Below, piece after piece: positions 28,073 to 56,373 of a stretch of 64,000 bases of DNA; the stretch's first letter is position 1; every line of letters begins with the position of its first letter. The position numbers and the translations under genes were made by a program. The DNA is taken from positions 2,643 to 66,642 of the forward strand of contig PHGD01000002.1 in assembly GCA_011090425.1 (NCBI GenBank). Reading direction: 5' to 3'. The notes beneath the pieces are model-generated. The model saw nothing but the letters and a program-made list of their open reading frames with translations. It did no database searches and was not told the origin of the DNA. The DNA is from Nitrospira sp. LK70. GTDB lineage: Bacteria > Nitrospirota > Nitrospiria > Nitrospirales > Nitrospiraceae.

Positions 28073-28120
28073 ATCTGGGACTCTTTCCACCAAGTGTAGA
28101 TGGACTCTTGACTGACAACA

Positions 28121-29770: not shown

Positions 29771-29783
29771 AGGAGGCACTCCG

Positions 29784-38340: not shown

Positions 38341-38393
38341 CCGTAGGTTGTGTCCAAATTCGTTGACGACTACCTGTAAGTAGGATGTGGAAT

Positions 38394-38437
38394 GGAAGGA
38401 AGCCACGATGGGACTGAATAGATCGCGGCTTCCTTCC
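38394..38437. terminator. hairpin between the convergent FG-GAP and integrase genes
   Basis: GGAAGGAAGCC / GGCTTCCTTCC, an 11-bp perfect stem with a 22-nt loop. Confidence 0.45.
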
Positions 38438-38513
38438 CGGTACTCCGACATCCCATCGTAGGTGGAGTGGAGTAACATCGAGTGATGTGGAATTGACCGT
38501 TCTCGATCTGTAC

Positions 38514-39491: not shown

Positions 39492-39582
39492 ATTAGTGTA
39501 TGATAACGTCCTTTATCATACTGTATTCTTGTTCGCTGCCGGCAGTGAAAAAAGCTGCAATACTATTCTATTGCCGTTTCTC

Positions 39583-39867
39583 ATGGCATATGGCATGATG
39601 AATGGCATGGATGTGAAAATTGATAAATCTGGTCGGATCGTCGTGCCGAAACCGCTCCGAGATCGGCTCGGGTTGAAACCCGATATGGAACTGGAGGTCC
39701 AAGAACAAGCTGATGGGCTGTTCCTCCGGGTGCCCGTGCCACACCCTACGATGGTCAATGTGGATGGGCTCTGGGTGCACCAGGGGACGGCGCAGACCAA
39801 CGCGGACTGGGCGCGTGTGCTGGAGGACGTGCGCGACGAACGCCTCCGGGCCGTGGGCTCGGACTGA
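39583..39867 (+). CDS. vapB: AbrB/SpoVT-type antitoxin (VapB-like)
   Basis: MDVKIDKSGRIVVPKPLRDRLGL. The start is ambiguous among ATGs at 39583, 39595 and 39607. Confidence 0.75.
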   Translation: MAYGMMNGMDVKIDKSGRIVVPKPLRDRLGLKPDMELEVQEQADGLFLRVPVPHPTMVNVDGLWVHQGTAQTNADWARVLEDVRDERLRAVGSD

Positions 39868-39870
39868 GCC

Positions 39871-40311
39871 GTGGTGCAGGTATTTTTTGATACGACGGTT
39901 TTGGTCGCCGCGTCGGAACGGAGCCATCCCCATCATGCGCGCGCCCTGCCCGCCCTACGGCGAGTCGTCGCCGGTCAGGATACGGGATTTGTGAGTGCCC
40001 ATTCGATTGCGGAGACCTACGCGGCGTTGACCCGGCTCCCGGTGCAGCCTCGGATTCATCCGAGTGAAGCAGCCCGCATCATTACGGAGAATATTGTGCC
40101 GTATTGTACGGTAGTGCCCCTCACGCACGAGGAGTATCTCCAGGCATTGACCGTGGTGCGGGATGCGGGGATTCCTGGGGCCAAAATCTATGATGCCCTG
40201 CTCCTGGCCTGTGCGACCAAATGTGCGGCAGAGCGGATCTACACGTTTAATCTTAGCGACTTTCGTCAATTGGCGACCCCCGATCAACTCTCAAAGGTGA
40301 TGGCCCCCTAA
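39871..40311 (+). CDS. vapC: PIN-domain toxin (VapC-like)
   Basis: VFFDTTVLV..., ...SAHSIAETY... and ...IYDALLLACA... fit the PIN acidic-residue pattern. GTG start 4 nt after vapB. Confidence 0.85.
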   Translation: MVQVFFDTTVLVAASERSHPHHARALPALRRVVAGQDTGFVSAHSIAETYAALTRLPVQPRIHPSEAARIITENIVPYCTVVPLTHEEYLQALTVVRDAGIPGAKIYDALLLACATKCAAERIYTFNLSDFRQLATPDQLSKVMAP

Positions 40312-40405
40312 GAGCGCGCGGGGTCTCCTCACCACATCCCTCAGAAAACGACGCCGGCAGACTTCCAAGCATATTTGGGATATAGTAAAGTCTTTTTCCG
40401 GTAAC

Positions 40406-43400
40406 TTACAAAGATAATGTCTGTCTAGAGTCGTCCAGCCATCCTGCAGACGTACGTCTACCAAGCGCGACTCGGCCAACGATGGAATTGTCACGGAGGG
40501 AGTAGATCGCACCAGTATGCCTACGTTGAAGTCCGAGTAGAGTACGAACCTCAGCACAAACTGCAAGATGAGACTTATCTGGCGAGAGAGACGCGGCTAC
40601 TACTCGGCATCGCCCCTTTTCCAGAGCAGCTTCAAGTCTTTGGGCTATTGTCATCCATCTTTCGGGTTCATCCTCGGTTCTTCTCTTACCGTCAAGGAGA
40701 TCCAGGAGTATCTCCAGGGAAGGGTGTCGTCCGGAGGTGGTAAACTCGAAATGCACAAGTACCTTAGTCAGCCAACAATCGTGAAGGTCTTCAGGGTGAA
40801 ATCTGCGTCCGCTCCATAGACAGGATCTTGCTTCAACAGGGGCACAGAACTTTCCTGTCGCCGATGTGATAGCAACTTGCTGTAGAATTCGCGCTCCAGA
40901 CAAACTGCTAGTAACAAGAAAGGTTCTTAAGGCTCGTTTCCCGGTGGCCGCACAACGCTCCATTTCTCTTGGGAGGACCCGTTTCTTCGAAACGAAGCAT
41001 TCTTCTAGTACCCCTGGCCTAACTAAGGCATTGGTTATTGCGCATTGCTCGGTCTCCGATACGAGAATCGGCTGTCTAGTTTCTTCACATACTATGAACT
41101 CAGATGTGTGCCCAGACTTCCCAGACACCACAGAGCGCAGCTGCTCGTCCGATCGATAGCGCTTGCCCGATACTTCGCTTGTAGCCAGCTCGGTTATTAG
41201 CACCTCAGCCCCAGTGAAATCACAGCGCCCAAAATACTCTGGTTCTGCACGCTTCCCACTTGTAGCCGATGTTTTTAGCAACCGTTTAAAGACAGGTTGA
41301 CCCGTGACCGCGGATTGTTCCACTTCATCTTTTAGTAACCGCTTCTTGGTTGTGGCACAGAGAACCATGAATTCTGGCAAGGCGTATCTTCCAGACACAT
41401 CGGAACGCGCAAGCAGGTCCTCAAGGACTGATTGGCCAGACATTTCACACTGCTTGAAGCATACGGGGGGAGCTTTCCGTCCGCTCTTGGCACAGGTCAA
41501 GAGCGCAGGAGCATCGACTAAAGTCGGATCGTGCGGGACGAGAGTAATCGTGGTGCCATATTCCTTCTCCCCTTCCAGTTTAAAGCGGACTTGTACCTCG
41601 GCTCGCCTATAGACTTTTCCTTCCAAGGCGACAAGGCTCATCTCAAGTCTGGGTGTGAATTCATCTTCGAGCTTTTTGGCTCTGCGCCGATCATCTCCTG
41701 CCGCTCGAATCTCCTCGTCTCGTCGTTCTAGATAAAAACGGCTAAATTCAGAAATCCCGGCGTCCTCCTTGGCGTCTCTGACAATACCTTCCAACCTCAG
41801 TCCTATGTCTCTTGGATACTGAATTATTTGTGGTATTGGATCGAACCCTCTACGCGCAAAGGGAGTCATGTGTTCCGCTCCCGAACATTTGACAGCGACA
41901 AGCCTTTCGTAACTGTCATGCGCGACTGTGGCCCGAACCCGGACTACGGCATGGCCATCAAAGCATTGGCTTACCAACGGAATATCTATTCCGGTTAATG
42001 CGGCATTGAAGGATCGAAGCCAGCTGGTTGAGATTTCGCTGCATCGGATGGCCGGCTGGTTATCACGGTCCTCTAAATTGTATAGCGCAGAACCTACGAC
42101 TCGATGAACAAGGTCGAGGAATGGACCTGTCCCCGGTTCGTATAGGACACTTTTCTTCTCCTTGTTGGGCTGATCGTTAAAGGAGATGAATTGGTGGCCC
42201 CCATTCTCCTCAACAAGGACCAGCCCGTCTTCGAGCTCAGTAACCTGCGCCCCAAGGACACGAAGAGCCGAGATTGTAAACTCACGGGGCTCCATCGCTC
42301 GTGTGACCACTGGTAGCCTCGGGGCTCGTGGACCGGCGTAAGCGGCACCATCCATTCCGCCGAGGAGTGAATTAATGTGTTCTTCTTCCCGTGTCAAAGT
42401 CTGTCTTGCATTCTCAATACTTTGTTCAGCCTGACGAGTCGCTTCCTCGAAATCTTTTCCTGTAAGGGCCGCAATTACCAGTTGGCGAATTTTTTCATCG
42501 AAGTCAGTAGGGCCTTCCTCATCTCCCTCATTGATACCAGCGGCCCCAAGGAGAGCTTCGATGTCTCCAATCGCATGTGAAGCTAATTGGAGTTTCTCCA
42601 TGAGCCGTCCGACAATGAACTCTTCAAATGTCCCGCTCAAGATAATGTTAAAGATGGCGACGCTGGCATGGTCAGAGGCGAGACGCTGGATTCGGCCGAT
42701 CCGCTGCTCAACGATCATGGGATTCCAAGGCAGGTCATAATTAACCAACACGTTCGCGATCTGAAGGTTGATACCTTCAGACCCTGCTTCGGTCGAGACA
42801 ATGACGTGGCAATCCGGCGGCGTTTTGCGAAACCCGGCGAGCGTTTCCTGGTTACGAGGTCCAGAAGAGCCATTGATAACTCCGACCTTTAAGCCATGTT
42901 TTTCCAAGAAGGCTTGAATCGTCGTTTGAGTCTCACGGCGCCCCGTGAAAACGACAAGTCGCCAGCGCTCAGGATTTTCACCTTTGAGTCTCTCAATTAA
43001 TGCCCCCAAGCCTCGAAGTTTAGCGGTCAATGGCATTTGCGTAACCAGCGTGCTAACCATCTGCGCAAGCTCGAGCGGAACAGTGCGGTTTCGAGCCATG
43101 TTCTCGAGTTGGGCCTTTAGAGCTTCAGGGCTGCTCGTGAGTGCCTGCAATATCGAAATTTGTGCCAGCCGATTTAGTTTCTGGATTGGCTTCGCAATTG
43201 TTCGAATGAGTTCGAGCTCGGCCGGGGTCGGTTCAACCTTATACAGCTGTACTTTGCGGTCGGGAAAGGACAAGTTGGTATCCGCGCGACGAATTCGAGA
43301 CATGTAGCCATAAATAATGGAGCGAAATTCCTCCCTGGCTTCGAGCTTCAATTGGCGTGCCTTCTCAGGGCTATCGGCGATAAATTTGCGAGCAAACACG

Positions 43401-44128
43401 CCTTCGCTGCCAAATGGGTTTTGATGTCCCCTCGCGACTGTCAGCAGATCGACGAGCGAATAGAGATCCCAGAGACGATTTTGGATCGGTGTGGCAGTTA
43501 GCATCAGGACATAGCGAAACCGGCGATCTTGAAGCGCCGCTCGAAAGCGCCGAGCGACCAGTGGCGGTGACTCGACTCCATATAAATTTCTAAGCTTATG
43601 AGCCTCGTCGAGAATGAGCATTTCAAAACGATCGCGTGGGATTTCGTCCAGGTACAAGCGGGCGGAGTTATACGTCGTTATGACGGCGCTGTGCTCTTGT
43701 GGCATTTCACCGATAAGATCTCGACCTGTTGCGATCGTCGAAGGGATGTTAAATTTGGACGCGAGCTCTTCTTGCCACTGAGGACCCAATAACTTTGGGC
43801 AGACAACCAGAAACTTGGAAAGGCGCGACCGAGAAATCAACTCGCTAACAATTAACCCAGCACTAATTGTTTTACCAAGTCCAACGTCATCCGCGAGTAA
43901 CGTGACAGGGAGACGGCGGCAAAAAGTTATAAGGTTTGTGACTTGGTGCTGGTATGGACTAACACGGTCCTGCCAACGCGCTTCAGACTTGAGATCGTCA
44001 TGTTTCTCTATGACTATAGGGTCGAGTAAGTCCCATTCAAGTCCGGCCCTATAGACATCGTATTCGAGAGGAGTGGCTGCTTTATGAAGTACGCGAGTTT
44101 GGAGGTTCACCTCTGACATAGGGTTCAA
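40406..44128 (-). CDS. SNF2-family helicase with a long repeat-containing C-terminal extension
   Basis: LADDVGLGKT, LILDEAHKLRN, LTATPIQN and DLPWNPMIVEQRIGRIQR. The ORF opens with TTG and the first ATG is at 44119. Residues ~878-1133 carry about 17 tandem 15-residue units. Confidence 0.85.
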   Translation of the reverse strand: MNPMSEVNLQTRVLHKAATPLEYDVYRAGLEWDLLDPIVIEKHDDLKSEARWQDRVSPYQHQVTNLITFCRRLPVTLLADDVGLGKTISAGLIVSELISRSRLSKFLVVCPKLLGPQWQEELASKFNIPSTIATGRDLIGEMPQEHSAVITTYNSARLYLDEIPRDRFEMLILDEAHKLRNLYGVESPPLVARRFRAALQDRRFRYVLMLTATPIQNRLWDLYSLVDLLTVARGHQNPFGSEGVFARKFIADSPEKARQLKLEAREEFRSIIYGYMSRIRRADTNLSFPDRKVQLYKVEPTPAELELIRTIAKPIQKLNRLAQISILQALTSSPEALKAQLENMARNRTVPLELAQMVSTLVTQMPLTAKLRGLGALIERLKGENPERWRLVVFTGRRETQTTIQAFLEKHGLKVGVINGSSGPRNQETLAGFRKTPPDCHVIVSTEAGSEGINLQIANVLVNYDLPWNPMIVEQRIGRIQRLASDHASVAIFNIILSGTFEEFIVGRLMEKLQLASHAIGDIEALLGAAGINEGDEEGPTDFDEKIRQLVIAALTGKDFEEATRQAEQSIENARQTLTREEEHINSLLGGMDGAAYAGPRAPRLPVVTRAMEPREFTISALRVLGAQVTELEDGLVLVEENGGHQFISFNDQPNKEKKSVLYEPGTGPFLDLVHRVVGSALYNLEDRDNQPAIRCSEISTSWLRSFNAALTGIDIPLVSQCFDGHAVVRVRATVAHDSYERLVAVKCSGAEHMTPFARRGFDPIPQIIQYPRDIGLRLEGIVRDAKEDAGISEFSRFYLERRDEEIRAAGDDRRRAKKLEDEFTPRLEMSLVALEGKVYRRAEVQVRFKLEGEKEYGTTITLVPHDPTLVDAPALLTCAKSGRKAPPVCFKQCEMSGQSVLEDLLARSDVSGRYALPEFMVLCATTKKRLLKDEVEQSAVTGQPVFKRLLKTSATSGKRAEPEYFGRCDFTGAEVLITELATSEVSGKRYRSDEQLRSVVSGKSGHTSEFIVCEETRQPILVSETEQCAITNALVRPGVLEECFVSKKRVLPREMERCAATGKRALRTFLVTSSLSGARILQQVAITSATGKFCAPVEARSCLWSGRRFHPEDLHDCWLTKVLVHFEFTTSGRHPSLEILLDLLDGKRRTEDEPERWMTIAQRLEAALEKGRCRVVAASLSPDKSHLAVCAEVRTLLGLQRRHTGAIYSLRDNSIVGRVALGRRTSAGWLDDSRQTLSL

Positions 44129-44636
44129 TCGGTGTCACGAATTCCATTGCGGAGTAATAAATTGCGTTCATTCGTACGCCTAGAGCTTCTGAAAATCAAC
44201 AATACTGATGAGGGAGTGCGGCTAGGAACTCAAGGAAAGCGTGCAATAGATGTCTTTCTGTTTTGAGTAGCATCTCAGGTTAGACTCCTGGATCTCCTAT
44301 CACAGATTTGCTGACCAGTTGACGCGCACAGGCGGTGTGTCAATTTACCGAATACTTGTTTAGGTCGCTCATCGGTGTACATATGCCCCCCCACTTCAAT
44401 GATAAACCGTTCATAGGCGAGGTTCAGGAACCAATGTCTGTTCATACATGGATCAGGGGATCGCCCAGTAAATGAATCAAAGGGGGCATTCTCTGATTCA
44501 GATCCAGCTCGACCAACAGCCGTCGCTCTCGGAGCCTATACAGCATGCTGTGACGCATATCATGAATCAACTCCACGCCATGAAGCCGAACCTCAATCAG
44601 ATTGCGCGCGCCTCAGACTGCGTTCAAGCTTAACAG

Positions 44637-44661
44637 GTGGCGGTGCGGCTCGAACCGCTCC
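44637..44661 (-). other. tRNA 3'-end-like fragment (T-arm plus acceptor strand)
   Basis: The reverse strand reads GGAGCGGTTCGAGCCGCACCGCCAC, i.e. GG-TTCGAGC-CC T-loop geometry followed by 7 nt. No matching 5' half is present. Confidence 0.35.
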
Positions 44662-44901
44662 AAGACTAGCCCAAATGTATTGGCACGATGGACTAGATCA
44701 TGACACTCATCAGTTCGAGGTCTGAAACTCGGCGCGACGCCCGTTCCTTTCTTCTCTCTGCAAAAGCAACTAATAAGATACTTGGGTATCCCCCCAAAAG
44801 GTGGTATGAGAAACAGTCTAAATCAGCTATATAAACAGCCCTTCTCTCTGCATGTCATCTTCCTAGGTTTGTTTATTATGTTAGAACCGCTCGGTTAAGA
44901 G

Positions 44902-46830
44902 ATGAGACTCGAATCAGTACGAATTAAGAATCTCCGATCCTTTGCTGACGTGACCGTCCCTTTCAATGAGTACACTTGCCTTGTGGGGCCAAATGGTTCT
45001 GGTAAATCGACCATCTTGTGTGCCCTCAACGTCTTTTTCCGTGAAACCGAGAATTCAGGCATTGATCTGAGTCAGCTTGATCGTGAGGATTTTCATCAAA
45101 AGAATACCGCTGAACCAATAGAGATTACTGTCACATTCACAGACTTAAGTCCGGAAGCTCAGCAGGACTTTTCCAATTACTATCGTCAGGGAAAGCTCAT
45201 CATTTCCGCAGTTACTACTTTCAATGATGCCACCGGAAAAGCCGAGGTCAGACAGTACGGCCAACGCCTCGCCATGCCCGGGTTCAAAGACTTTTTCCGA
45301 GCCGTTGGGGATAACAAGAAAGTCACTGAACTAAAGTCCCTTTACGCTGAGATCCAGAAGAACTTTGGCGATCTCCCTGCCGCTGGCACGAAGGACGCCA
45401 TGATCGAGGCTCTCCGCAAGTACGAAACTGACCACCCTGATCAGTGCGAATTGATCGTGAGCGAAGATCAGTTTTATGGGATCTCCAAGGGCGCTAACCG
45501 TCTTGCCCAATACATTCAGTGGGTTTACGTCCCAGCAGTTAAAGATGCGGCCACGGAACAGCTTGAGGCCAGAGACACAGCCCTCGGCAAACTACTGGCA
45601 CGTACCGTCCGGGCAAAGACAAATTTTGAAGAGGCCGTCAAAGCCCTTCGCACGGGAATGCAGGAACAATATCAACAACTTCTCGATAAGAATCAGGAGG
45701 TTTTGAAGGAACTCTCAGATTCACTCCAGACACGCTTAACCGAGTGGGCACACCCAGAAGCCACTTTGAAGCTAGAGTGGCGTCAGGATCCTGATAGATC
45801 TGTGCGGGTCGATGAGCCTTTAGCAAGGATCATCGCAGGAGAGGGTAATTTCGAGGGGGAACTCCCCCGGTTCGGGCATGGCCTTCAGCGGTCCTACCTT
45901 CTTGCTTTGCTGCATGAACTCGCTAGCAGCAATGCCAAGGCCACTCCGCGACTCATCTTAGGGTGCGAAGAACCTGAACTCTATCAACACCCCCCTCAGG
46001 CCAGACATCTAGCCACCGTTCTCCAGGACCTCAGCAAGGCCACCTCACAGGTTATTGTTTCGACCCATAGTCCATTATTCGTCTCCGGCGAGGGCTTTGA
46101 AGATGTCCGCATGGTCAGAAAAGATGTCATTCAAAAGCACTCGACCGTTACATATATGTCCTATAAAGACATTGCCGATGCCGTTGCAACCGCCACGGGA
46201 GAACCGCCCAGCAAACCGCAGGGTGTTCTGGCAAAGATCCACCAAGCATTACAACCTTCACTCAACGAGATGTTTTTTACTTCCCGCCTGGTACTGGTCG
46301 AAGGTCTTGAAGATGTTGCTTATTTGAGTTCCTATCTTCATCTCCTCAATAAATGGGACCAGTACCGCCGCAGCGGCTGTCATATTGTCCCCGTGAATGG
46401 CAAGAGTGAGATGTTACGCCCGGTGGTGATTGCCAAGCGTATCCGCATTCCAACCTTCGTTGTCTTTGATTCAGATGCCGATGAGCAGCATCCAGACAAG
46501 AGGGCAAAACATCAGAAAGATAACAAAGCCCTGCTTGCGCTCCTAGGCAAGGCAAACGAAAACCCATTACCCACGACCAGCTTGTGGGGCTCTGGGTTTG
46601 TCATGTGGCGATCCAATATTGGCGCTCTTATTAGAGCGGAAATTGGTACAGCTGACTGGAGTGCCTTTCAAGCAGAAGCTGACAAGCAGTACGGCCATGC
46701 TGGCGGACTTCGGAAAAATATACTGCATATCGGGTTTTGTCTTGCCCAAGCTTGGGAAGCGGGCAAAAGATCTCCGAGTCTCGAACGCCTGTGTAATGAG
46801 ATTTTGAATCCAGCCGTCAGTGTACAGTGA
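44902..46830 (+). CDS. OLD-family ATPase/Toprim nuclease
   Basis: Walker A GPNGSGKST, LILGCEEPELYQHP and VSTHSP. Toprim: LVLVEGLEDVAYL, VPVNGKSEM and VVFDSDAD. Confidence 0.85.
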   Translation: MRLESVRIKNLRSFADVTVPFNEYTCLVGPNGSGKSTILCALNVFFRETENSGIDLSQLDREDFHQKNTAEPIEITVTFTDLSPEAQQDFSNYYRQGKLIISAVTTFNDATGKAEVRQYGQRLAMPGFKDFFRAVGDNKKVTELKSLYAEIQKNFGDLPAAGTKDAMIEALRKYETDHPDQCELIVSEDQFYGISKGANRLAQYIQWVYVPAVKDAATEQLEARDTALGKLLARTVRAKTNFEEAVKALRTGMQEQYQQLLDKNQEVLKELSDSLQTRLTEWAHPEATLKLEWRQDPDRSVRVDEPLARIIAGEGNFEGELPRFGHGLQRSYLLALLHELASSNAKATPRLILGCEEPELYQHPPQARHLATVLQDLSKATSQVIVSTHSPLFVSGEGFEDVRMVRKDVIQKHSTVTYMSYKDIADAVATATGEPPSKPQGVLAKIHQALQPSLNEMFFTSRLVLVEGLEDVAYLSSYLHLLNKWDQYRRSGCHIVPVNGKSEMLRPVVIAKRIRIPTFVVFDSDADEQHPDKRAKHQKDNKALLALLGKANENPLPTTSLWGSGFVMWRSNIGALIRAEIGTADWSAFQAEADKQYGHAGGLRKNILHIGFCLAQAWEAGKRSPSLERLCNEILNPAVSVQ

Positions 46831-46872
46831 TAATCGTGTTTCCGGGAAAATGGCCGCCGGAGAAGAAACCAC

Positions 46873-48114
46873 ATGCGGGTCATCCACACTTCCGATTGGC
46901 ATCTTGGCCAGGAGCTGCATGGTTTCGATCGTCGCGTCGAACATGATTTGTTCCTCGACTGGCTAGCCGAGCAACTGATCGAACAAAAGGCTGACGCACT
47001 CATCATCACGGGCGACGTTTACGACACGGTCAACCCACCTATTCCCGCTCAACAGCGCCTGTATAAATTCCTCCGGCGAGTAATAACCGAAAGTCCACAC
47101 CTTCAAATAGTGCTCATCGGCGGCAATCATGACTCAGCTGCACGACTTGAGCTGCCAAAACATCTTCTCGATACTAGCCGAGTCCATCTCATCGGGGGAA
47201 TGCCTCGGTATAATGGTCAGCCGGTTGTAGGGCAGACACTGATCGCACTACGGGACGTGACCGGAACTCCCCGAGCTGTGTGCGCTGCTGTCCCCTACCT
47301 ACGCCCAGGAGATCTTCCCGTGGTAGCCAGTAGCGAACGCCCCCTTCACGCTCTCTACCAGCAAGTTATTGAGGCTGGGCACATCATGCATGAAGGCCTC
47401 CCCTTGATCGTCACAGGCCACTTACACATGAGCGGGGGAGCAGTATCGGAACTGAGCGAACGGCGAATCGTCATAGGAGGCGAGGAGGCGGTTTCCTCTG
47501 ATCTTTTCCCATCAAGTGTCTCCTATGTAGCGTTAGGCCATCTCCACAAACCACAGTTTGTATCAGGTCACACTATCATCCGCTATGCCGGATCGCCTTT
47601 CCCGATGTCGGTCGCGGAGAGGGACTATCAACACAGTATCGTCGTGATCGATTTCGATACGACGGCTGGTCTCACAATAGATTTGGTGCGGACCCCGAGA
47701 CCCGTCGCCTTCCTTCGGGTTCCGGAAGTTGGTGCAGAGCCACTCGACCAAGTAGAGGCTGAATTACGCACTCTTAAGATCGACGATCCTGGGCAGGATC
47801 GTCGACCATTCCTTGAGGTCGCGGTTCGGCTCGATGGAGCTGAGCCAGAGCTTAGGGCACGTATCGAAGCGGCCTTGGAGGGGAAGCCTGTCCGACTCAC
47901 GCGCATCGTTCGTCAGACTGAGGGACAGGGAGGCACATTGGCTGACAACGTGGAAGGAGACACAGAGCTCGACACGCTGGAGCCGGCCCATGTGTTCGCT
48001 CGGCGTCATGTTGAGGAATACGGAGTTGAGCCGGCGGCAGAGCTTATGAGGGCCTTTGACGAAGTGCTGACGGGCATCTCATCGCCAGAGAACGATCAGA
48101 CAGGCGTGACATGA
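46873..48114 (+). CDS. sbcD: SbcD/Mre11-type nuclease
   Basis: HTSDWHLG, ITGDVYD, IGGNHDS, VTGHLH and ALGHLH. GGAGAAG RBS. Confidence 0.9.
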   Translation: MRVIHTSDWHLGQELHGFDRRVEHDLFLDWLAEQLIEQKADALIITGDVYDTVNPPIPAQQRLYKFLRRVITESPHLQIVLIGGNHDSAARLELPKHLLDTSRVHLIGGMPRYNGQPVVGQTLIALRDVTGTPRAVCAAVPYLRPGDLPVVASSERPLHALYQQVIEAGHIMHEGLPLIVTGHLHMSGGAVSELSERRIVIGGEEAVSSDLFPSSVSYVALGHLHKPQFVSGHTIIRYAGSPFPMSVAERDYQHSIVVIDFDTTAGLTIDLVRTPRPVAFLRVPEVGAEPLDQVEAELRTLKIDDPGQDRRPFLEVAVRLDGAEPELRARIEAALEGKPVRLTRIVRQTEGQGGTLADNVEGDTELDTLEPAHVFARRHVEEYGVEPAAELMRAFDEVLTGISSPENDQTGVT

Positions 48115-51100
48115 GAATCCTTGCGATCCGAGGTGAAAACCTTGCCAGCCTCTCCGACCCATTCGAAGTCGACTTCGAGGCGGAGCCAATCCGCAGCTCC
48201 GGTATCTTCGTGATTACTGGGCCAACCGGCGCTGGGAAGACAACCCTGCTGGATGCGCTTTGTCTTGCGCTGTTCGACCGGCTCCCTCGCATGGATACAG
48301 CAGAGAGTGGAGCATCAATCGGACGGGTCGAAGGCGATATTTCGCAGCAGCTCAAATATGATGACGTACGTGGGATCCTCTGTCATGGCACCGGCACGGG
48401 CTATGCGGAGGTAGACTTTGTCGCACAGGATGGACAGCGGTATCGCTCTCGCTGGGAGGTGAAGCGTGCGCGCGGCAAAGCCGATGGGAAACTTCAGAAT
48501 CAGAAGATGACGCTTACAGACATCACGTCCGGGGCAATTATCGGTGATAAGAAGACTGATACCCTTCAGCAGATCCAAAAGCGCATCGGGCTCACCTTCG
48601 ATCAATTTCGGCGATCAGTCCTTCTAGCCCAGGGCGACTTTGACATTTTCATAAAGGCCGGCTCAAAAGACAGAGCTGAGCTCCTCGAAAAGATCACAGG
48701 GACCCAGATTTACTCTGATATCTCGCGGGCCGCATTCGCCCGAGCCAAACAGGAGCGGGAAGCGCTACGAGACCTTGAAACCCAGCTCGGTGAGCATCAG
48801 CCACTTGGGGATGAGGCAAGAACTTCGGCAGAGGTACGTTTCCAGGAAGCTAAGATCCAACAAGACCGTATCGAGGCAGCACGAGTCACTCTCAAGAAAT
48901 GGGAGGATTGGCACGAGGTTAGATCTCGACTCGACAGACGTGTTGTGGAAGGGAATGCGGCGCTGACGCAAGCCTTGGCGTTAGATCAAAATGCCGAAAG
49001 TGACCGGGCCAACCTAGCTATGGCAAAGAAGGCATTTGCCCTGCGTGCCGAGATCGAGACAGCAACGGCCACCGGAAGGCGGCTGGCAGACGCATGGAAA
49101 GCATTCGTCGACGCGCAGGAAGGTGAGCATAAGGCTCTAGAGGGGCGCGATAAAGCCGTTTGGGCAAGCAACGCTGCAAAGGATGAACGTGACAAAGAAC
49201 GAGCAGCCTATGATGCGATAGGCCCTGAACTCGACAAGGCGCAACGGCTCGACGCCCTGATTGAATCAGCCAATGTTGATTTGGCAAATCTAGCAGACCT
49301 CCTAGGAAAGAGCTCCAAGGAGAAAGACACCGCCCACGATGCCATTACAGAAGTCGAACGTACACTCAAGGCGACACGAGACCAGCGTGAAAATGATGGC
49401 CGTTGGCTCGAAGAACACAAATCAGTCGAGGCACTTTCGGTACGAATGAAAGATGTCGAGAGGGATCTATCCGAGCGGCTCACTCTGACATCTGACATTA
49501 CATCAACCGAGCCAATGATTCGGCAGCTTGCTCTCGATGCGGAAGTTGCCAGAACATCCCGGCGGGAAAAGGAAAATGTGGTCGCGGCCCTCCAGGAACA
49601 AGACCGTAAACTAGACGAGCAGCTTGCCACGCTCCGACAAATTGCTGGCGCAATCGATGTCTCTGCGGTTGAAACCAGACGCGATAATCTTATGCGGGTT
49701 CAGGCTGCGCTAGATAATGCGCAGCACGCTTCAGAAGATGCCCGGAAGGCCCATGGGGCAATCATTACGGCAAACGATGAAGCAGCCAAACAGGAAACCC
49801 TCATCCATCGCGCTTCCGGAGTCATGACTCAGATAGATTCCGAGTTACCCACGGACCTTGCACGTATGGAAGAAGCCCGGCGCAGCCTTGCTCTTTCTGA
49901 AGCGGCTGGAACGGAGGCAGCAGAGCACCTTCGCCTCAAACTGGAAGAGGGACAACCATGTCCAGTCTGCGGAGCAACGGAACATCCAGTCGCCGACGTT
50001 GATCGAGTTCTTAAGGCTCGAGTACTGGCCGATCATAGTCGCGTCGCCGAGCTGGAAGCAAAGGTGTCATCCGCTCAGGCTAACCGTACTCGCGCAGAGA
50101 CACAGATCGCTGCGGCAAAGGACGCACTAGAAGGAGTCCTGCAACGGAGATCGAATCAAGAGAAAGAATTGCGGGTTGCCCTCGATAAATGGCAGGCATC
50201 AATTGCTTCTGCATCGACCTATTATGGCGAGATTGGAGTTTCCATCCCAACCTTCCTCGAGGATGCCATTGGCACAGAAAGTGTAGAGGTCATCAACTCC
50301 GTTCGAGGGACAGTGGAGAAGCTGCTGAGTGATGCCAGGGAGACCATTAAGCGTGCGTCCGACGCTGAAGCTCAAATCCGAACAGTCTCCGATGATCGTG
50401 AGAATGTTCGCGCTCGCCTTTTGACCGCGAATGCAGGCATTGTGAAGTTCACGGATGAAGAACATGACAAAGTCAGTAAGGCGGGGATGCTCCAAGCGAC
50501 ACTTCAAGGAACGAAGCAGAATCTAGCCTCCCTCTGTTCCCGTCTCGACACGGCGCTCGCCCCGGTGTTTCCCAACTGGCAGAATCAAATTGCCAGCACC
50601 AGTGAACCATTCGTAGAGATCTACAGCAATCTTGTCAATGACTGGCATAAATGTTGTAGACGGCAGGAGATGACCGCTGCCGATATTTCCCGTCTTGAAG
50701 CAGACCTGGAGGGAAAGCGGGCAACGCTCAAGGGGCTGGAGACCGCCATCGAGGGAACCCTGAAACGATATGCAGATAAGAAAGATGAGCTCAACGGGCA
50801 CAATAGTGATCGCATCCTGGTTATCAAAGGACGGCCCGTCGAAGAGGTTCGGACTGAATACAGAAAGCAGTGGGAAGCCACCGAAAAACTGTGGAACGAA
50901 GCCGAGCATAAGAAGTCCATGGCCGAGCAGATTGCTGCTGGGATGTCGTCAAATGCCCTTGCCGCTCGTAAGACCGCCGAGGCAGCAAGAATCGACCATG
51001 AATCGGCAGAAGCTTTGCTTAAAGAAAAGCTCCTGGCCAATAACATCGGTAGGTCGCAAGTCGAATCCGCAATCACCAAAGGTGAGGCATGGGTTGTAGC

Positions 51101-51884
51101 GGAACAGGTTCGTCTCGATACCCTTCGAGACATCCTCGCGGCCGCTCGGGCAACTCTCCTTGAGAGACATCAATCTGCTAAGGAGCACGAAGCGACTGAT
51201 CGCCCAACACAAACTCGAGAAGAAATTGCCACGGCTCTCGAGGAGATAGAGGCGCAGCACAGCAAGGCGTCGGAGGCATTTGTCGAAGCAAGCTCGGTTC
51301 TCTTGAGTGACGACCAAGCGCGTTCAAAAACAGGGAAAATCAAAGCCGCTCTTCATGAGCGGCAACAGCAAGCACATGTATGGGGACAGCTCGACGATCT
51401 CATCGGTTCAGCTGACGGCACCAAGTTTCGGCGATTCGCTCAATCTCTGACACTAAATTATCTCATTCATTTGGCAAACCGACATCTGAACAATTTACAC
51501 CCTCGATATGAGCTACAACGATCACCGGGCAGCGATCTCGTATTACAGGTCATTGATCGAAACATGGCAGATGAGGTCCGCGGTGTTCATAACCTTTCAG
51601 GCGGCGAAAGATTTCTAGTTAGCCTTTCTCTAGCACTCGGACTTGCCAGCATGTCGTCGAATCGCGGGATTAAAGTTGAAAGCTTATTTATTGACGAAGG
51701 ATTTGGCGCACTAGATAGCAATAGCCTTGCAATGGCAGTCTCTGTCCTTGAGCAGCTTCAAGCAACCGGCCGTCAAGTCGGGGTCATTAGTCACGTCGAA
51801 GAGATGAAGGAACGAATCGCCGTAAAGGTGGAGGTGACCCCAGTTGGGGGTGGTCGCAGCATCGTCCAAGTTGTTACTGCCTGA
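48111..51884 (+). CDS. sbcC: SbcC/Rad50-type ATPase
   Basis: GPTGAGKTT, a long coiled coil, zinc hook PCPVCG, LSGGERFLVSLSLAL and LFIDEGFGALD. The start overlaps the sbcD stop. Confidence 0.9.
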   Translation: MRILAIRGENLASLSDPFEVDFEAEPIRSSGIFVITGPTGAGKTTLLDALCLALFDRLPRMDTAESGASIGRVEGDISQQLKYDDVRGILCHGTGTGYAEVDFVAQDGQRYRSRWEVKRARGKADGKLQNQKMTLTDITSGAIIGDKKTDTLQQIQKRIGLTFDQFRRSVLLAQGDFDIFIKAGSKDRAELLEKITGTQIYSDISRAAFARAKQEREALRDLETQLGEHQPLGDEARTSAEVRFQEAKIQQDRIEAARVTLKKWEDWHEVRSRLDRRVVEGNAALTQALALDQNAESDRANLAMAKKAFALRAEIETATATGRRLADAWKAFVDAQEGEHKALEGRDKAVWASNAAKDERDKERAAYDAIGPELDKAQRLDALIESANVDLANLADLLGKSSKEKDTAHDAITEVERTLKATRDQRENDGRWLEEHKSVEALSVRMKDVERDLSERLTLTSDITSTEPMIRQLALDAEVARTSRREKENVVAALQEQDRKLDEQLATLRQIAGAIDVSAVETRRDNLMRVQAALDNAQHASEDARKAHGAIITANDEAAKQETLIHRASGVMTQIDSELPTDLARMEEARRSLALSEAAGTEAAEHLRLKLEEGQPCPVCGATEHPVADVDRVLKARVLADHSRVAELEAKVSSAQANRTRAETQIAAAKDALEGVLQRRSNQEKELRVALDKWQASIASASTYYGEIGVSIPTFLEDAIGTESVEVINSVRGTVEKLLSDARETIKRASDAEAQIRTVSDDRENVRARLLTANAGIVKFTDEEHDKVSKAGMLQATLQGTKQNLASLCSRLDTALAPVFPNWQNQIASTSEPFVEIYSNLVNDWHKCCRRQEMTAADISRLEADLEGKRATLKGLETAIEGTLKRYADKKDELNGHNSDRILVIKGRPVEEVRTEYRKQWEATEKLWNEAEHKKSMAEQIAAGMSSNALAARKTAEAARIDHESAEALLKEKLLANNIGRSQVESAITKGEAWVVAEQVRLDTLRDILAAARATLLERHQSAKEHEATDRPTQTREEIATALEEIEAQHSKASEAFVEASSVLLSDDQARSKTGKIKAALHERQQQAHVWGQLDDLIGSADGTKFRRFAQSLTLNYLIHLANRHLNNLHPRYELQRSPGSDLVLQVIDRNMADEVRGVHNLSGGERFLVSLSLALGLASMSSNRGIKVESLFIDEGFGALDSNSLAMAVSVLEQLQATGRQVGVISHVEEMKERIAVKVEVTPVGGGRSIVQVVTA

Positions 51885-52060
51885 TCGTCGTGATTCTCTT
51901 CGGTGACTAAAGAACATCTGGGCCAGGACGGTGAAGTGCCTGTCCGGTAATTGCAATGCGGTTCCATAAGGTCTTCGGCGACTTGATAACTATTGCTAAC
52001 GCGAATTTATCCACCGCAAGTAGACGGAGTACACTTGCTTGCCAGCTGTGATTACGAACT

Positions 52061-53704
52061 CTAGGCCAGATTCCTAATACCATCGAGTAAAACCCGTGTT
52101 GCACGGCAATCATCCTCGTTGTAGTCAAGGATACGTTGCTGTGTTTCAAGGGAACCCGTTTTGACCCACTCGTCAAACCACTGGATCGAGGCCGCACCGG
52201 ATGGGTGCGTGTCCCGCCAGTGAAAGCCCAGAAATTTGGCCAGCGTCTTGATGGAGAGATCATGGGTCGGCCATTCGGTATGGGGTCTGACGACATCGGT
52301 ATACAGATCGATGGTGTTGGTCGGCTCGAACAGCGTCTCAATGTCGTCCGCGCTGCACACAGTGGGATACTTGGCCTGCAGCTTCCGATACATCGTCCGC
52401 TCGTATTTGGAGTAGTAAAAGATTGCACACGGCTGGGCGCGGCGCATGTAGTCCATGGCTTGGGCGAATGCGGCTTCTTCGGCTTCTGGTGCCGTGTCCG
52501 AGGTGAAATAGCCGATGAATTTCTCGGTGCTGTTGTCGCGGCCACGGCGCTCGATGAAGCCGTGCAGGTAGCACACATCCCGCATCGGATCGACTTCAAT
52601 GTCGAAGAACACTTCCACCTCATGCGTCGGCAACGTGATCGGTGCCTTCAGATAGGGCCTCGGATTCTGGCTGCTTAAGAGCTTTGCCCGTTCATGGAAC
52701 TTTGCCAACGTATCAGGGCCAATCCCGGTAAAGACGGTTTTCTTGCCTTTGGTGTACACCCCGGGATTGATGGTTGCCAATTCTGTCACGGTCCTGATCT
52801 CGCTGCACATGGCATCACGTTTCGCTCGACCAAGCTCAGAAATGAGTGTCAGATCATCAGCCGCCTTCACAGCTTGAAAGCAGCTGCTGTACCAGTGACA
52901 GAGCTTGCAGGTCCCTGACGCATAGGCGGGCAAGGTGTCATGTGTCCTGGCCATAATGTCGCGCGCGGTCGCCAATTGTGCCGCGTAGAAGTCCCACCAC
53001 GTTTCCGTGTTCCGCACGCCGCGCGACACGCTCATGTCGTAGGTCACTTCCGCACCATGCACATCCCAGATGAATCCACGGGGTCCTGCGGAGAGGCCCA
53101 AGCGTTCGAGAATATCCATGTACAGCGCCAGCTGCACAGCGTAGGTTTTCTTGAGACGGCGGTCGTCGCCCTCATCATCGCCCCCTTCCTCCCCAGCTCC
53201 GGATTTGATGTCGCCTGGCACATAGCCCGTTCCTTCCTTGCGCAATAAGTCAGGCTCGCCGAGGAGATCATCGGCCTCAATACGGCCGCCATAGATGAGT
53301 TGTGCGCCGGCGGCCATGGCTTCACGCGTCTTGTGAGCTTTCTCTCTCGTGGTGAACGTGTGGAGATCCACGAACGGAATATCAAGGGCGGCCATGCGTT
53401 CACGCTCCACACTTGAGCCACGCTCCCACAGCAGTTCCACGAAGGGATTCACGGGATCGCGTTGAGCAGGATCCGCATACGCATCCATGGTGACCCGATG
53501 CGGGCAGGTCACAAGGCTATACAACATCGACGCCGTGATTGCGCGTTGAGACCCAGAGCTGAATTCCTGCGGAGCGGTCTTTTCAGTCACGTCTGAGTTG
53601 ATGCGGTCTCTTGGTTGTGCTCGCAGTAGGTCCACCGGCTGTGGGCCTATCCGATGACGGGCGTTATTTCTTTCCGAGGATGGCGTCTTTGGCGGCCTTG
53701 ACAA
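52061..53704 (-). CDS. RecB/Cas4-like nuclease fused to a DnaQ-like exonuclease domain (TM0106-type)
   Basis: Cys cluster (TCPHR ... CKLCHWYSSC). Later VEVFFDIEVDP and a C-terminal YNEDDCRAT. The annotated start overlaps the HU gene by 41 nt. An in-frame GTG at 53590 is an alternative start. Confidence 0.75.
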   Translation of the reverse strand: MSRPPKTPSSERNNARHRIGPQPVDLLRAQPRDRINSDVTEKTAPQEFSSGSQRAITASMLYSLVTCPHRVTMDAYADPAQRDPVNPFVELLWERGSSVERERMAALDIPFVDLHTFTTREKAHKTREAMAAGAQLIYGGRIEADDLLGEPDLLRKEGTGYVPGDIKSGAGEEGGDDEGDDRRLKKTYAVQLALYMDILERLGLSAGPRGFIWDVHGAEVTYDMSVSRGVRNTETWWDFYAAQLATARDIMARTHDTLPAYASGTCKLCHWYSSCFQAVKAADDLTLISELGRAKRDAMCSEIRTVTELATINPGVYTKGKKTVFTGIGPDTLAKFHERAKLLSSQNPRPYLKAPITLPTHEVEVFFDIEVDPMRDVCYLHGFIERRGRDNSTEKFIGYFTSDTAPEAEEAAFAQAMDYMRRAQPCAIFYYSKYERTMYRKLQAKYPTVCSADDIETLFEPTNTIDLYTDVVRPHTEWPTHDLSIKTLAKFLGFHWRDTHPSGAASIQWFDEWVKTGSLETQQRILDYNEDDCRATRVLLDGIRNLA

Positions 53705-53951
53705 CTCTGAATTTGACCACGCGTTTGGCAGGGATCTTTATTTCTTTGCCCGTTTGGGGATTGCGGCCGATGCGAGCTTTGCGGTTGGCGAGCTTGAGTT
53801 TTCCGAGACCAGGGATGGTAAAGACGTTTTTCGCCTCCCGATAGGCCAAGGCGGCGAGCTCGTCGAGAAACTCCACCATCGCTTTTTTCGTGAGTCCAGA
53901 TTTCTCAGCGAGGTGCTCGGCGATCTGTGACTTGGTGAGGGGTTTTCCCAT
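53664..53951 (-). CDS. HU/IHF-family DNA-binding protein
   Basis: MGKPLTKSQIAEHLAEKSGLTKKAMVEFLDELAALA...GRNPQTGKEIKIPAKRVVKFR. AAGGAG RBS. The ORF-track start at 54143 is too far upstream. Confidence 0.9.
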   Translation of the reverse strand: MGKPLTKSQIAEHLAEKSGLTKKAMVEFLDELAALAYREAKNVFTIPGLGKLKLANRKARIGRNPQTGKEIKIPAKRVVKFRVVKAAKDAILGKK

Positions 53952-54531
53952 TGAATGCTCCTTTCTGTGTACACGGTGAGCGATGGTTGTAGCGAGATGC
54001 GACAAGAGTGTCAAGACGCGTTGTGCGCTATGATGGCAGCGGACATGCCTCGCATAGGGTCGTGCCAGATTTGACGAGACCGCACGGTCCACCTCCATCC
54101 TCATCCTTGTGTACTCAATCTCCTCGCGCGGGGCCTTCGACATCCTCCCGTATGCAGTACCCGACTCGCCTCAATTCACGCGCCTCATGTCCGCCTCGAA
54201 GCTGATCATTCGACCATCTACCCTGTGATGAGCGGGTGTCGTGACTTCGGCGTGTCACAACGGGCCTCTTCGCCCCATTCCCTCCATCTCGTGTGCTGCA
54301 TCTCTGAAACCGGCATCGGTGTTGACGTGTGATGCCTGTGCGGGTGCGTCCTCGGCCCTGGCTTTCCCCCGGCGGGCTGCGTCGCGCTCACGCCAGCACG
54401 CTGTCATTTCTCCGCTGGGCGCCCGCCGGTCCGCCAGGTGGCCTCGTCCTCTCTGTCTCCTTTGTCGTCGCTGTGTGGCCTCCACGCCTGGTGAGAGGTC
54501 AGCCCATCAACTCAAATCAAAGGAGACGTCA

Positions 54532-54846
54532 ATGGCACCTCACGATCAACCACTCAAACCTCAGCCGGTCGAGAAGTTCACGTGCAGCAGCATTACCGCG
54601 AGCATTTGGAAAAACGAGGGGGAGAAGGGCGCGTTCTACAACGTGACCATCACCCGCTCCTATAAGACGGCGGATGGGTGGAAGCGCTCCGACTCGTTCA
54701 GCCTGAACGATCTGGAAGCGGTCACGGTCGTCCTTGGCCACGCGAAAGTGTGGATCGGAGCAGGCCAGGTACTAACCGGATATCGGACGCCTTCGGCCCT
54801 CGCGCCGGGGGCGTCCCTTCGCCATATGAAAGGAAATCCACGATGA
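54532..54846 (+). CDS. hypothetical protein
   Basis: 104 aa starting from ATG 54532 (AAGGAG RBS). No motif recognised. Confidence 0.4.
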   Translation: MAPHDQPLKPQPVEKFTCSSITASIWKNEGEKGAFYNVTITRSYKTADGWKRSDSFSLNDLEAVTVVLGHAKVWIGAGQVLTGYRTPSALAPGASLRHMKGNPR

Positions 54847-55016
54847 ACATGTATCGAGAGTTCGCAGCAGACTTGAATCAGCCTCTTGGCAGTCACATCG
54901 CGGTCCGCATCACCGTGGACTCCTACCTCGTGAGATGTGATCGAATATTCGGAGATCTCGGCATGACCCCAGAGAGAGAAACTCACAGAGGCGTATCGTC
55001 GCGCGCCCGACCATGA
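54843..55016 (+). CDS. possible small hypothetical protein
   Basis: 57 aa. Its ATG overlaps the previous stop (ATGA), suggesting coupling. No motif recognised. Confidence 0.25.
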   Translation: MNMYREFAADLNQPLGSHIAVRITVDSYLVRCDRIFGDLGMTPERETHRGVSSRARP

Positions 55017-55116
55017 CCGACGACGTGGTCATGACGATCGGTAGTGGTTTTCCTTACGGTCTTCAGTTGGTCAATCATAATTTACTAGAACAATTAACTA
55101 TGAATAATGGATAACT

Positions 55117-56373
55117 ATGCTTTACCATTTTAAAGCTGTAGTACGTCTGGTAAATTATCCTTTACCATGGCTCACTTACTGTGGGGACATATCTATATAT
55201 AAGGATCACTTCGCCGGCACCCTGCGCCAGGAACCGGGGGACCGGACGTCCTTTACCTACCATGACAGCTACCTGTCCTCAGGTCAGCCGTCCATAGCCC
55301 ACACCCTTCCTCTTCAGGCAGCGCCATTCCTCTCAGAGTCCGGCCTGCCACCCTTCTTTGACAATCTGGTCGCCGAAGGCTGGCTGGAAGAAGCACAGAC
55401 GCGCCTGCTGGCCAAGCGCCGGGCCTCGCGCTTCGAACTGCTGCTGGCCTTCGGTCAGGACTGCGCGGGCGCCGTCTCCATGATCGATCCGGAACCGCAG
55501 GAGCGCGGCATCATCAAACCCGATAATCCTATGGACATGGCGGTCATGGCAGGGCGGGCATCGCTCTCGGGTATCCAGCCCAAGCTGGCCCTGATCAAGC
55601 AGGATAGAACATTCCGTCCGGCGCGCGCGCGCGAATTGAGCACGCATATCGGAAAGTTTCCATCGCCGCGCCATGAGGATCTGACCGCCAATGAATGCCT
55701 GACGACCATGGCGCTCAAGGCCCTGCTACCCGACGACAAGATTGTTGATCTGCACATGGGAACAATAGAGGGCTTGACCGAGCAGGCGCTCATCATCACG
55801 CGTTTTGACCGGACGGCGGACGGGCAACGGATCCATTTTGAGGAGTTTAACCAGCTGCTGGGTTACCCTTCCGACGCCAAATATGGCGGAAGCCACACAA
55901 GCATGGCGGATTTTATCCGCGAGACACCAGGTTGCTTGCCCGCTGAAATCTATAGGCTCTACCTGCGGATTCTGGCCGGACTCCTGCTCGGCAATACCGA
56001 CATGCATCTGAAGAACTTTGCCATGTTCCATACGGATGCCGGCATGCGGTTATCACCCGCTTACGACGCCGTATCCGCGGCTTTATACGGGGACAAGACC
56101 ATTGCCTTGTCGATCGGCGGCACTCCCAATATTCCGATAGGAAATTTGAAGCCGCAAACGCTCATCCACCTGGGACAGGAGTTCGGCTTATCCACGGACG
56201 CCGTGGCGATGGCTGCCGGTCAGCTCGAACGACGCAGGCAGGCAGCCAGGGAAGCCATGGCGAAGAGCAAGATCGGCAGCCAGTCATTAAAAGATGAAAT
56301 CCTCACGCACATGGACAGACGATGGAACGGAACCTTCGCCTTGATTGGCAAGACCTTGTCGAAGAAGCGGTAA
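55117..56373 (+). CDS. hipA: HipA-family serine/threonine kinase toxin
   Basis: SLSGIQPKLAL, LLGNTDMHLKNFAMFH and an N-terminal coupling-domain pattern (FTYHDSYL). The start is uncertain. Confidence 0.85.
   Translation: MLYHFKAVVRLVNYPLPWLTYCGDISIYKDHFAGTLRQEPGDRTSFTYHDSYLSSGQPSIAHTLPLQAAPFLSESGLPPFFDNLVAEGWLEEAQTRLLAKRRASRFELLLAFGQDCAGAVSMIDPEPQERGIIKPDNPMDMAVMAGRASLSGIQPKLALIKQDRTFRPARARELSTHIGKFPSPRHEDLTANECLTTMALKALLPDDKIVDLHMGTIEGLTEQALIITRFDRTADGQRIHFEEFNQLLGYPSDAKYGGSHTSMADFIRETPGCLPAEIYRLYLRILAGLLLGNTDMHLKNFAMFHTDAGMRLSPAYDAVSAALYGDKTIALSIGGTPNIPIGNLKPQTLIHLGQEFGLSTDAVAMAAGQLERRRQAAREAMAKSKIGSQSLKDEILTHMDRRWNGTFALIGKTLSKKR

Follow-up and report, generated by a model that had tools for sequence, protein, structure and literature searches.

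A 64,000-nucleotide stretch of DNA from Nitrospira sp. LK70 (contig PHGD01000002.1, positions 2,643 to 66,642; referred to here as the window) carries a cassette of three genes, encoding an OLD-family ATPase-nuclease and the two subunits of an SbcCD nuclease, that is inherited as one unit. The OLD clade to which this cassette belongs is recurrently linked to Mre11/Rad50-like gene pairs, and within the clade these pairs have been replaced. Few effector architectures of prokaryotic immunity are as widespread as the OLD-family ATPase-nucleases, whose classes are distinguished by the partners they have. While the OLD family and SbcCD are themselves known, our comparisons point to an Mre11/Rad50-type partner class for OLD-family modules as new. 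We give about even chances to the reading that the cassette is a mobile, OLD-based three-gene defense or abortive-infection module which carries its own end- and hairpin-processing SbcCD and follows an "own damper/guard" logic.

Including its leader, the cassette is 7.1 kb long (about 44790-51890), with its genes at 44902-51884. It comprises the following elements, where type A denotes loci with the gene order OLD-SbcD-SbcC:

44790..44901, + strand: conserved leader and putative promoter region, about 110 nt (alignment of six type A loci)
44902..46830, + strand: OLD-family ABC ATPase and Toprim nuclease, 642 aa (Pfam, PADLOC, and structure matches)
46873..48114, + strand: SbcD, Mre11-type metallophosphoesterase with SbcD C-terminal domain, 413 aa (Metallophos, SbcD_C, TIGR00619)
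48111..51884, + strand: SbcC, Rad50-type coiled-coil ABC ATPase with CPVC zinc hook, 1257 aa (AAA_23, SbcC_Walker_B)

The three genes are co-directional, with 42 nt separating OLD from SbcD and the SbcC ATG at 48111 overlapping the SbcD TGA (ATGA). A preliminary description of this DNA had named a 642-aa OLD protein, an Mre11-type gene after 42 nt, and an ATGA-overlapping 1257-aa Rad50-type gene, and the open reading frames and all of the motifs that it quoted match exactly. The OLD translation contains GPNGSGKST, LILGCEEPELYQHP, VSTHSP, LVEGLED, VNGKSE, and FDSDAD, and with an N-terminal ABC ATPase fused to a C-terminal Toprim domain in a single polypeptide, the protein is a member of the OLD family. 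It matches Pfam AAA_15 (5.5e-47) and OLD-like_TOPRIM (5.8e-12), each above the cut-off, and in PADLOC the single-gene "Old" model fits it best (2.8e-54), ahead of AriA and then of many GajA models. The nearest solved structure is the class 1 OLD protein of Thermus scotoductus (6P74; 3.5e-22 by sequence, 2.1e-18 by Foldseek), and OLD, GajA, and Eco8 OLD structures head the matches both by fold and by sequence; the AlphaFold2 model is of moderate confidence (predicted local distance difference test score of 68) and served for family-level fold matching alone.

The two downstream genes encode a canonical SbcCD, i.e., a full-length SbcD with its SbcC-binding C-terminal domain and, directly after sbcD, an SbcC with a CxxC motif. 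SbcD keeps all phosphoesterase motifs (DWHLG, GDVYD, GNHD, GHLH, and LGHLH), matches Pfam Metallophos and SbcD_C, and clears the TIGR00619 cut-off of 77.65 with 180 bits. SbcC contains GPTGAGKT, LSGGE, and LFIDEGFG, carries its CPVC hook at residues 617 to 620, and matches AAA_23 (2.9e-27) and SbcC_Walker_B. Its match to the E. coli-type model NF007600 is strong (1.6e-121) yet below the cut-off, and NCBIfam SbcC models score under their curated cut-offs (407 versus 750 and 260 versus 478), as fits a divergent, unusually long coiled coil. In the six aligned type A loci, the leader preserves near-invariant blocks (AAAAGGTGGTATGAGAAACAGTC..GCTATATAA and CTTCCTAGGTTTGTTTATT), and a weak sigma-70-like match lies inside it at 44852-44879; we infer that the leader of about 110 nt may act as a promoter. 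No convincing terminator was found on the + strand after SbcC.

The trio has moved as a unit. At least six chromosomal loci in Nitrospira hold the cassette between flanks unrelated to one another, and nucleotide homology between the window and the genomes of five Nitrospira species (91 to 93%) is limited to about 44900-51896. Beyond the cassette, an SNF2 gene is common to the window and one of these five genomes, and flanking genes are unrelated at the protein level among the trio-bearing Nitrospira genomes. At the left edge of the six aligned loci, conservation starts near 44790 and continues to the OLD ATG; the right edge is sharp, with similarity between loci collapsing just past the SbcC stop. 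The GC content is constant across the cassette (53.1 to 53.6%) and stands apart from that of its flanks (55 to 60%). Purifying selection acts on all three genes, with ratios of nonsynonymous to synonymous substitution rates (dN/dS) of 0.03 to 0.14 for OLD, 0.13 to 0.22 for SbcD, and 0.12 to 0.27 for SbcC, and the dS values of the three genes are similar within each genome-pair comparison. The closest relatives of all three cassette proteins are from Nitrospira, and no megablast match to the cassette was found among PLSDB plasmids. A more distant copy of the trio (L081; L numbers label the homologue loci or contigs compared in this analysis) lies on contigs of 122 to 133 kb, with OLD, SbcD, and SbcC 79%, 78%, and 60% identical to those of the window, respectively. 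These contigs carry TraN, SLT, a ParM-like gene, and SSB and represent another conjugative element. Flanking direct or inverted repeats or a transposase that would explain the movement were not found. One of the Nitrospira copies is decaying: the OLD gene of L005 (1987-4014) is broken by an insertion of about 100 nt and a stop.

The OLD clade is linked to Mre11/Rad50-like pairs well beyond the type A trio. We surveyed the 80 top-scoring OLD relatives from 185,579 species genomes, which is a sample and not a census, and recovered two further arrangements through Pfam-annotated contexts, renewed searches with their proteins, and clustering of all neighbors. In type B, a Metallophos protein (~380 aa) and an SMC-like protein (~900 aa) precede OLD; in type C, OLD precedes a Metallophos protein (412 to 443 aa) and an AAA_27/YhaN-like protein (1161 to 1176 aa). 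The 80 relatives include 5 type A loci, 14 type B loci, and 3 type C loci (L020, L023, and L073), and metagenome look-ups added two further loci of type B. The contexts of OLD homologues at 71 to 74% identity, for instance, show a Metallophos protein (~377 aa) and an SMC_N/AAA_23 protein (892 aa) immediately upstream. An initial count of 75 unlinked loci among the 80, obtained by tblastn with the SbcD and SbcC of the window, was wrong; the type B and C partners are too divergent for these queries. Their phosphoesterases are about 27% identical to SbcD, with the N terminus alone aligning, and their ATPases lack the CxxC hook. The type C pair (Metallophos plus AAA_27 at 7.8e-61) is presumably of the YhaO-YhaN (SbcF-SbcE) kind, as in B. 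subtilis SbcE/SbcF. The window differs in carrying a canonical SbcCD, and no description of a YhaON-type pair linked to OLD was found in the literature searched.

In a neighbor-joining (NJ) tree with 200 bootstrap replicates (all trees reported here are NJ), OLD proteins of type A, type B (L171/L172), and type C (L020) fall in one clade with support of 199/200, and a second, B-rich clade, which itself has support of 199/200, adjoins it. Across the two clades, 22 of the 25 loci that could be evaluated carry an Mre11/Rad50-like pair beside OLD. One of the unlinked exceptions (L016) has kept, upstream of an intact OLD gene, no more than ~100 codons from the end of the SMC-like partner (9629-9940), a further sign of decay. 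Two other loci, L036 and L048, had been assigned to type B from the sizes of their open reading frames and were rejected: their translations, read by eye and not by Pfam, resemble an aminotransferase, a membrane protein, and low-complexity open reading frames and have no phosphoesterase or Walker motifs. The clade is spread over more than 10 phyla in a patchy manner that resembles horizontal gene transfer, and relatives lie in defense islands or mobile elements, beside type I restriction-modification, SIR2-HerA, AbiEii, and TraG genes. OLD proteins that are 67 to 80% identical are thus joined to three non-orthologous pairs in two gene orders. From the SbcCD side, a fourth junction came to light: at L087, an OLD-like Toprim protein of quite another kind, with 25% identity to the window OLD (PF20469 at 1.7e-9), has its C terminus encoded directly upstream of an SbcD 78% identical to that of the window, and this junction is independent of the others. 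The combination of closely similar OLD proteins with three different pairs, and of a different OLD lineage with the same SbcCD clade, is the signature of a functional dependency. The preliminary description had allowed that the adjacency might be unique to this replicon, which is not the case given the copies that Nitrospira chromosomes and another conjugative element carry; its idea of a three-gene system gains support from the conservation of the trio, both in its unit-wise recurrence and in the linkage within the clade.

A separate recurrent neighbor of OLD was noted in passing. A DUF2130 protein (~400 to 450 aa; PF09903 at 1.7e-60 for L056) adjoins OLD at L041, L049, L056, L063, and L071, all outside the Mre11/Rad50-linked clades.

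How might such a pair act on OLD? P2 OLD is reported to be an autoinhibited tetramer that is activated by single-stranded DNA hairpins and unprocessed DNA ends and that cleaves tRNAs, its in vivo target; host SbcCD counteracts this activation, such that deletion of sbcD potentiates defense, and SbcCD is in turn inhibited by lambda Gam (bioRxiv 10.64898/2026.07.10.737580, July 2026). The window protein resembles P2 Old and 6P74 in its fused ABC ATPase and Toprim domains and its length (~600 to 650 aa for this class), and P2 OLD is functionally tied to SbcCD and RecBCD via DNA hairpins and ends. The difference is that P2 uses the SbcCD of the host in trans, while the SbcCD of the window is encoded in the same operon as OLD. 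By analogy, the relation between the cassette SbcCD and OLD could be antagonistic, with SbcCD as a damper, rather than cooperative, and of the two signs of coupling we favor the damper over the activator. Neither protein has gained a domain and the partners have been replaced, which argues for coupling through shared DNA substrates, such that any Mre11/Rad50-type activity suffices; the coupling therefore probably needs no dedicated protein interface and passes through DNA substrates or products. In the proposed mechanism, SbcCD would bind and cut hairpins and blocked ends, and OLD would be a toxic effector whose activation scales with the hairpins and ends that persist. The cassette SbcCD would silence OLD by clearing self-generated hairpins and ends, such as those from plasmid replication or conjugative single-stranded DNA, and this clearing would be especially relevant on conjugative elements. 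OLD would fire when an invader floods the cell with hairpins or ends or when, in the manner of lambda Gam, it inhibits Mre11/Rad50- and RecBCD-type nucleases. The target would be a phage or plasmid, and the response a form of surveillance or abortive infection. The broader proposal, that these loci constitute an undescribed OLD class with an obligate but interchangeable Mre11/Rad50-type partner (SbcCD, the hook-less pair of ~380 and ~900 aa, or a YhaON-like pair) acting as a guard circuit, is tentative, and we place its chances somewhat below even.

Several observations weigh against the damper/guard reading, and we consider them here together with the explanations that they would fit. One set concerns the reach of the linkage. 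The union of the two OLD subclades is weakly supported (112/200), 5 of 55 loci outside the core clades are linked, and none of the 11 OLD relatives from viral contigs has a partner pair beside it. OLD might then be a stand-alone class 1 defense gene that came to lie beside sbcDC by chance and hitchhikes with it, as its best PADLOC model, its closest structure, and the solitary state of most relatives beyond the core clade and of all viral ones would allow. Such a chance association is difficult to reconcile with four independent junctions between OLD and Mre11/Rad50-like genes and with the proportion of linked loci within the clade; an SbcCD-like pair occurs about once per genome, and adjacency at this frequency by chance would be implausible. 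The common leader, the 42-nt gap, the ATGA overlap, and unit-wise transfer also point to one operon. We strongly disfavor this explanation and consider it very improbable.

A second set concerns the origin of the cassette SbcCD. To judge from its relatives, it is an ordinary SbcCD captured from a housekeeping lineage and is not specialized. The nearest SbcD relatives without OLD (71 to 78% identity) are in stable housekeeping chromosomal loci, beside heme biosynthesis genes, PEPCK, or a chromate transporter with FBPase and PRK, the last neighborhood being syntenic in two contigs. Sampling around SbcD showed that an SbcCD of 413 and 1257 aa is the housekeeping pair of some lineages, and OLD is likewise missing from about 75 SbcCD loci that are more distant. 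OLD-linked and OLD-less sequences are interleaved in the SbcD tree, and the lengths of both OLD and SbcCD match those of unlinked relatives, with no added domains. The preliminary description had named two further findings that would speak against its proposal, namely, that sbcCD is an ordinary housekeeping orthologue and that known tools type the OLD gene as stand-alone. Each holds in part: the pair is ordinary by sequence but travels inside a mobile cassette, and PADLOC does return "Old" as its best match but has no model for the trio. Two observations on related SbcCD loci were made along the way. At L088 (1-2596), an OLD-less SbcCD (SbcD 76% identical) is preceded by two same-strand open reading frames, which we take from their motifs to resemble DUF5131 (phage Gp37/Gp68-like) and three-Cys-motif partner (TcmP) proteins. 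A 209-aa open reading frame upstream at L091, considered as a PD-(D/E)xK effector, was dropped, as it had no Pfam support.

An unspecialized SbcCD of housekeeping descent would suit a repair or replicon-maintenance module, in which OLD and SbcCD process hairpins, blocked ends, and replication-termination intermediates of the chromosome or plasmid and which spreads through its benefit to the genome stability of the carrier. One Nitrospira trio locus lies amid the housekeeping genes AsmA, RtcB, and MFS, and supplying repair functions may be all that the Nitrospira cassette does; the L081 copy has the plasmid maintenance genes SSB and ParM-like in its vicinity. Precedents for such a role come from an archaeal OLD class that works in cell cycle progression and not in defense (PMC12796447) and from the speculation of Schiltz et al. 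about repair roles of OLD proteins (PMC6755086). We nevertheless regard this explanation as rather unlikely, since the insertion site varies among close Nitrospira genomes, the GC content is anomalous, and the trio is carried on conjugative elements. In addition, sister systems lie between restriction-modification, SIR2-HerA, and AbiE genes, the best PADLOC matches of OLD are defense models, and the patchy distribution of the clade is typical of defense genes. The defensive role that we infer for the cassette draws on comparative genomics.

The last set concerns the sign of the coupling. In the type B phosphoesterases (L006-L019 and L171-L173), DxQ replaces DxH and GDWH replaces GHxH, such that two metal-ligand histidines are replaced; if this form is not a nuclease, a sensor role is favored over hairpin clearing. 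Moreover, the results on P2 OLD were obtained with no more than a distant relative of the window OLD. SbcCD might instead be a positive sensor or first nuclease for hairpins, palindromes, or ends on invading DNA, in a cooperative "cut-and-destroy" or Lamassu-like system in which either the breaks made by SbcCD are passed to OLD for degradation or OLD is activated within a physical complex. The altered metal ligands would suit a sensor or scaffold better than bulk hairpin clearance, and P2 OLD and other OLD proteins have been described in vitro as DNA exo- and endonucleases (PMC6755086). The order effector-SbcD-SbcC also mirrors LmuA-LmuC-LmuB of Lamassu, which is argued to have evolved from SbcCD and combines an effector with an LmuC resembling the SbcD C-terminal domain and an SbcC-like LmuB (PMC12663957, 2025). 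Both the window SbcC and the ~900-aa SMC-like partner match PADLOC LmuB models (1e-13 to 1e-18). A co-evolved physical complex is, however, hard to square with three non-orthologous pairs among OLD proteins that are so similar, neither OLD nor SbcCD has acquired a docking domain, and SbcCD acts negatively on P2 OLD, whose target in vivo is tRNA (bioRxiv 10.64898/2026.07.10.737580). We judge a cooperative arrangement to be unlikely, albeit the main rival, and continue to favor the damper/guard reading.

The cassette does not fall within the OLD classes described to date, in which stand-alone genes in variable neighborhoods form class 1, genes partnered with a UvrD-like helicase (Gabija) class 2, retron-associated genes class 3, split PARIS genes class 4, and archaeal Cran1, with a membrane protein, class 5 (PMC6755086, PMC12796447). 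These descriptions do not mention Mre11, Rad50, or SbcC partners, in agreement with what had been supposed for this cassette at the outset. Schiltz et al. placed 107 of 837 old genes within "species-specific operons" (PMC6755086). The full-text literature that we searched yielded no operon of OLD with SbcCD or Mre11-Rad50; a possible precedent, the ABC ATPase classification of Krishnan et al. 2020 (NAR), lay outside this search. PADLOC-DB 2.0.0 has no model for SbcD, the type B Metallophos partner, or such a trio, and in NCBIfam release 20 no equivalog is passed by OLD or the type B partners and there is no system-specific family.

Taking the classes in turn, class 1 does not accommodate a clade that is so regularly linked to a pair or an OLD gene with operon spacing to sbcDC and a common leader. 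The neighbors of the window OLD are an opposite-strand SNF2 helicase and SbcD, and no UvrD-type protein was found beside it, as would be expected for class 2. For class 3, the NCBIfam Eco8 effector model gives 57 bits where its cut-off is 250, Rfam finds no family at the gathering score in 38000-56000 that could be a retron RNA, and Pfam finds no reverse transcriptase among the SNF2, SbcD, SbcC, RecB-like, and integrase proteins, the small open reading frames and a 773-nt gap upstream of OLD not having been scanned. For class 4, ATPase and Toprim domains are on one 642-aa protein, with the AriA match spanning the ATPase half. The cassette shares with Gabija, retron Eco8, and PARIS an OLD-type ATPase-Toprim with a co-encoded controlling or complementing partner, and GajA, AriA, and retron Eco8 models partly match the window OLD; its partner, however, is an Mre11/Rad50-type nuclease pair and not a UvrD helicase, a reverse transcriptase with noncoding RNA, or a split Toprim subunit.

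Beyond its three-gene order of effector, SbcD-related, and SbcC-related genes, Lamassu (DdmABC) resembles the cassette in its Rad50/SbcC-type coiled-coil ATPase, a sensor of DNA ends or palindromic hairpins, and in its occurrence on mobile elements and in defense islands. The window has only partial LmuB matches (1.5e-18), and no LmuA or LmuC model matches its OLD or SbcD. In contrast to Lamassu, its SbcD extends beyond the C-terminal domain to full length with an intact nuclease site, its SbcC retains the long coiled coil and standard motifs, and its upstream gene is an OLD ATPase-Toprim without an LmuA-type C-terminal domain. With housekeeping SbcCD (E. coli; Mre11-Rad50), the pair shares the nuclease and ATPase motifs, the zinc hook, and the sbcD-sbcC overlap, and it differs in belonging to a 7.1-kb mobile unit of anomalous GC content together with OLD and a common leader.

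If such a class exists, an Mre11/Rad50-type partner would couple the activation of OLD directly to the metabolism of DNA ends and hairpins; for P2 OLD, the same link is acted on in trans by host SbcCD, as shown genetically (bioRxiv 10.64898/2026.07.10.737580). The window cassette would represent a variant that has captured a whole housekeeping SbcCD and hence a concrete intermediate for the proposed evolution of SMC-like defense, such as Lamassu, from DNA repair, i.e., a living example of the first step in the exaptation of SbcCD into immunity, as proposed for Lamassu. The cassette is a compact, clonable 7.1-kb system in which sensor-damper-effector logic could be addressed. For annotation, such trios are now labeled "Old" plus an ordinary SbcCD and would be missed as systems.

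The surroundings of the cassette are those of a conjugative-plasmid-like backbone:

1.8-5.4 kb of the window: ParA, ParB, and RepA-like protein (plasmid backbone)
15-26 kb of the window: TraI relaxase and two TraG coupling proteins (conjugation genes), as follows
15189-17243, + strand: TraI relaxase, with the first TraG directly 3' of it
17240-19216 and 23692-25635, + strand: two full-length TraG/VirD4-type coupling proteins (T4SS-DNA_transf, both ~1e-132)
38514-39491, - strand: integrase
39472-40311, + strand: MazE/PIN (vapBC-like) pair
40406-44128, - strand: SNF2 helicase, 1240 aa (partial DrmD, BrxH, and DpdE-like matches)
52061-53704, - strand: TM0106-family RecB-like nuclease with RNase_H_2 domain, convergent with the cassette
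55117-56373, + strand: HipA-family toxin kinase
58.5-64 kb of the window: TrbL, TrbI, and TrbG (conjugation genes)

The Par/Rep/Tra/Trb backbone and the positions of these genes largely agree with the earlier placement of the cassette on a plasmid accessory island with a convergent RecB-like nuclease, an SNF2 helicase, and vapBC; an HU gene also lies within this accessory stretch. The SNF2 helicase is divergent from OLD at a distance of 773 nt and is 84% identical to a protein of L004. More distant SNF2 proteins are encoded directly upstream of OLD at L003 (opposite strand) and at L042, L065, and L080 (same strand). The RecB-like nuclease is 60% identical to the product of an L171 gene (15581-17053, - strand) that lies 3.6 kb downstream of a type B OLD, beyond a SIR2-HerA pair; other loci lack it, and the window and L171 may share it as a leftover from a common ancestor, or it may be one more neighbor that recurs. 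The HipA-family kinase and the MazE/PIN pair lie on either side of the island, and PemK, HigB, and HicAB modules occur near related SbcCD or OLD loci (L168, L186, and L085).

Elsewhere in the window, two open reading frames of 784 aa (35986-38340, + strand) and 803 aa (36106-38517, - strand) overlap almost totally on opposite strands. The former carries FG-GAP repeats and the latter has no Pfam match, and the + strand frame is probably the real gene. An accessory block of lower GC content (~51 to 52%) at 26615-33391 (+ strand) encodes a sodium:dicarboxylate symporter, a Cache-domain histidine kinase, a response regulator, and an astacin-family metallopeptidase.

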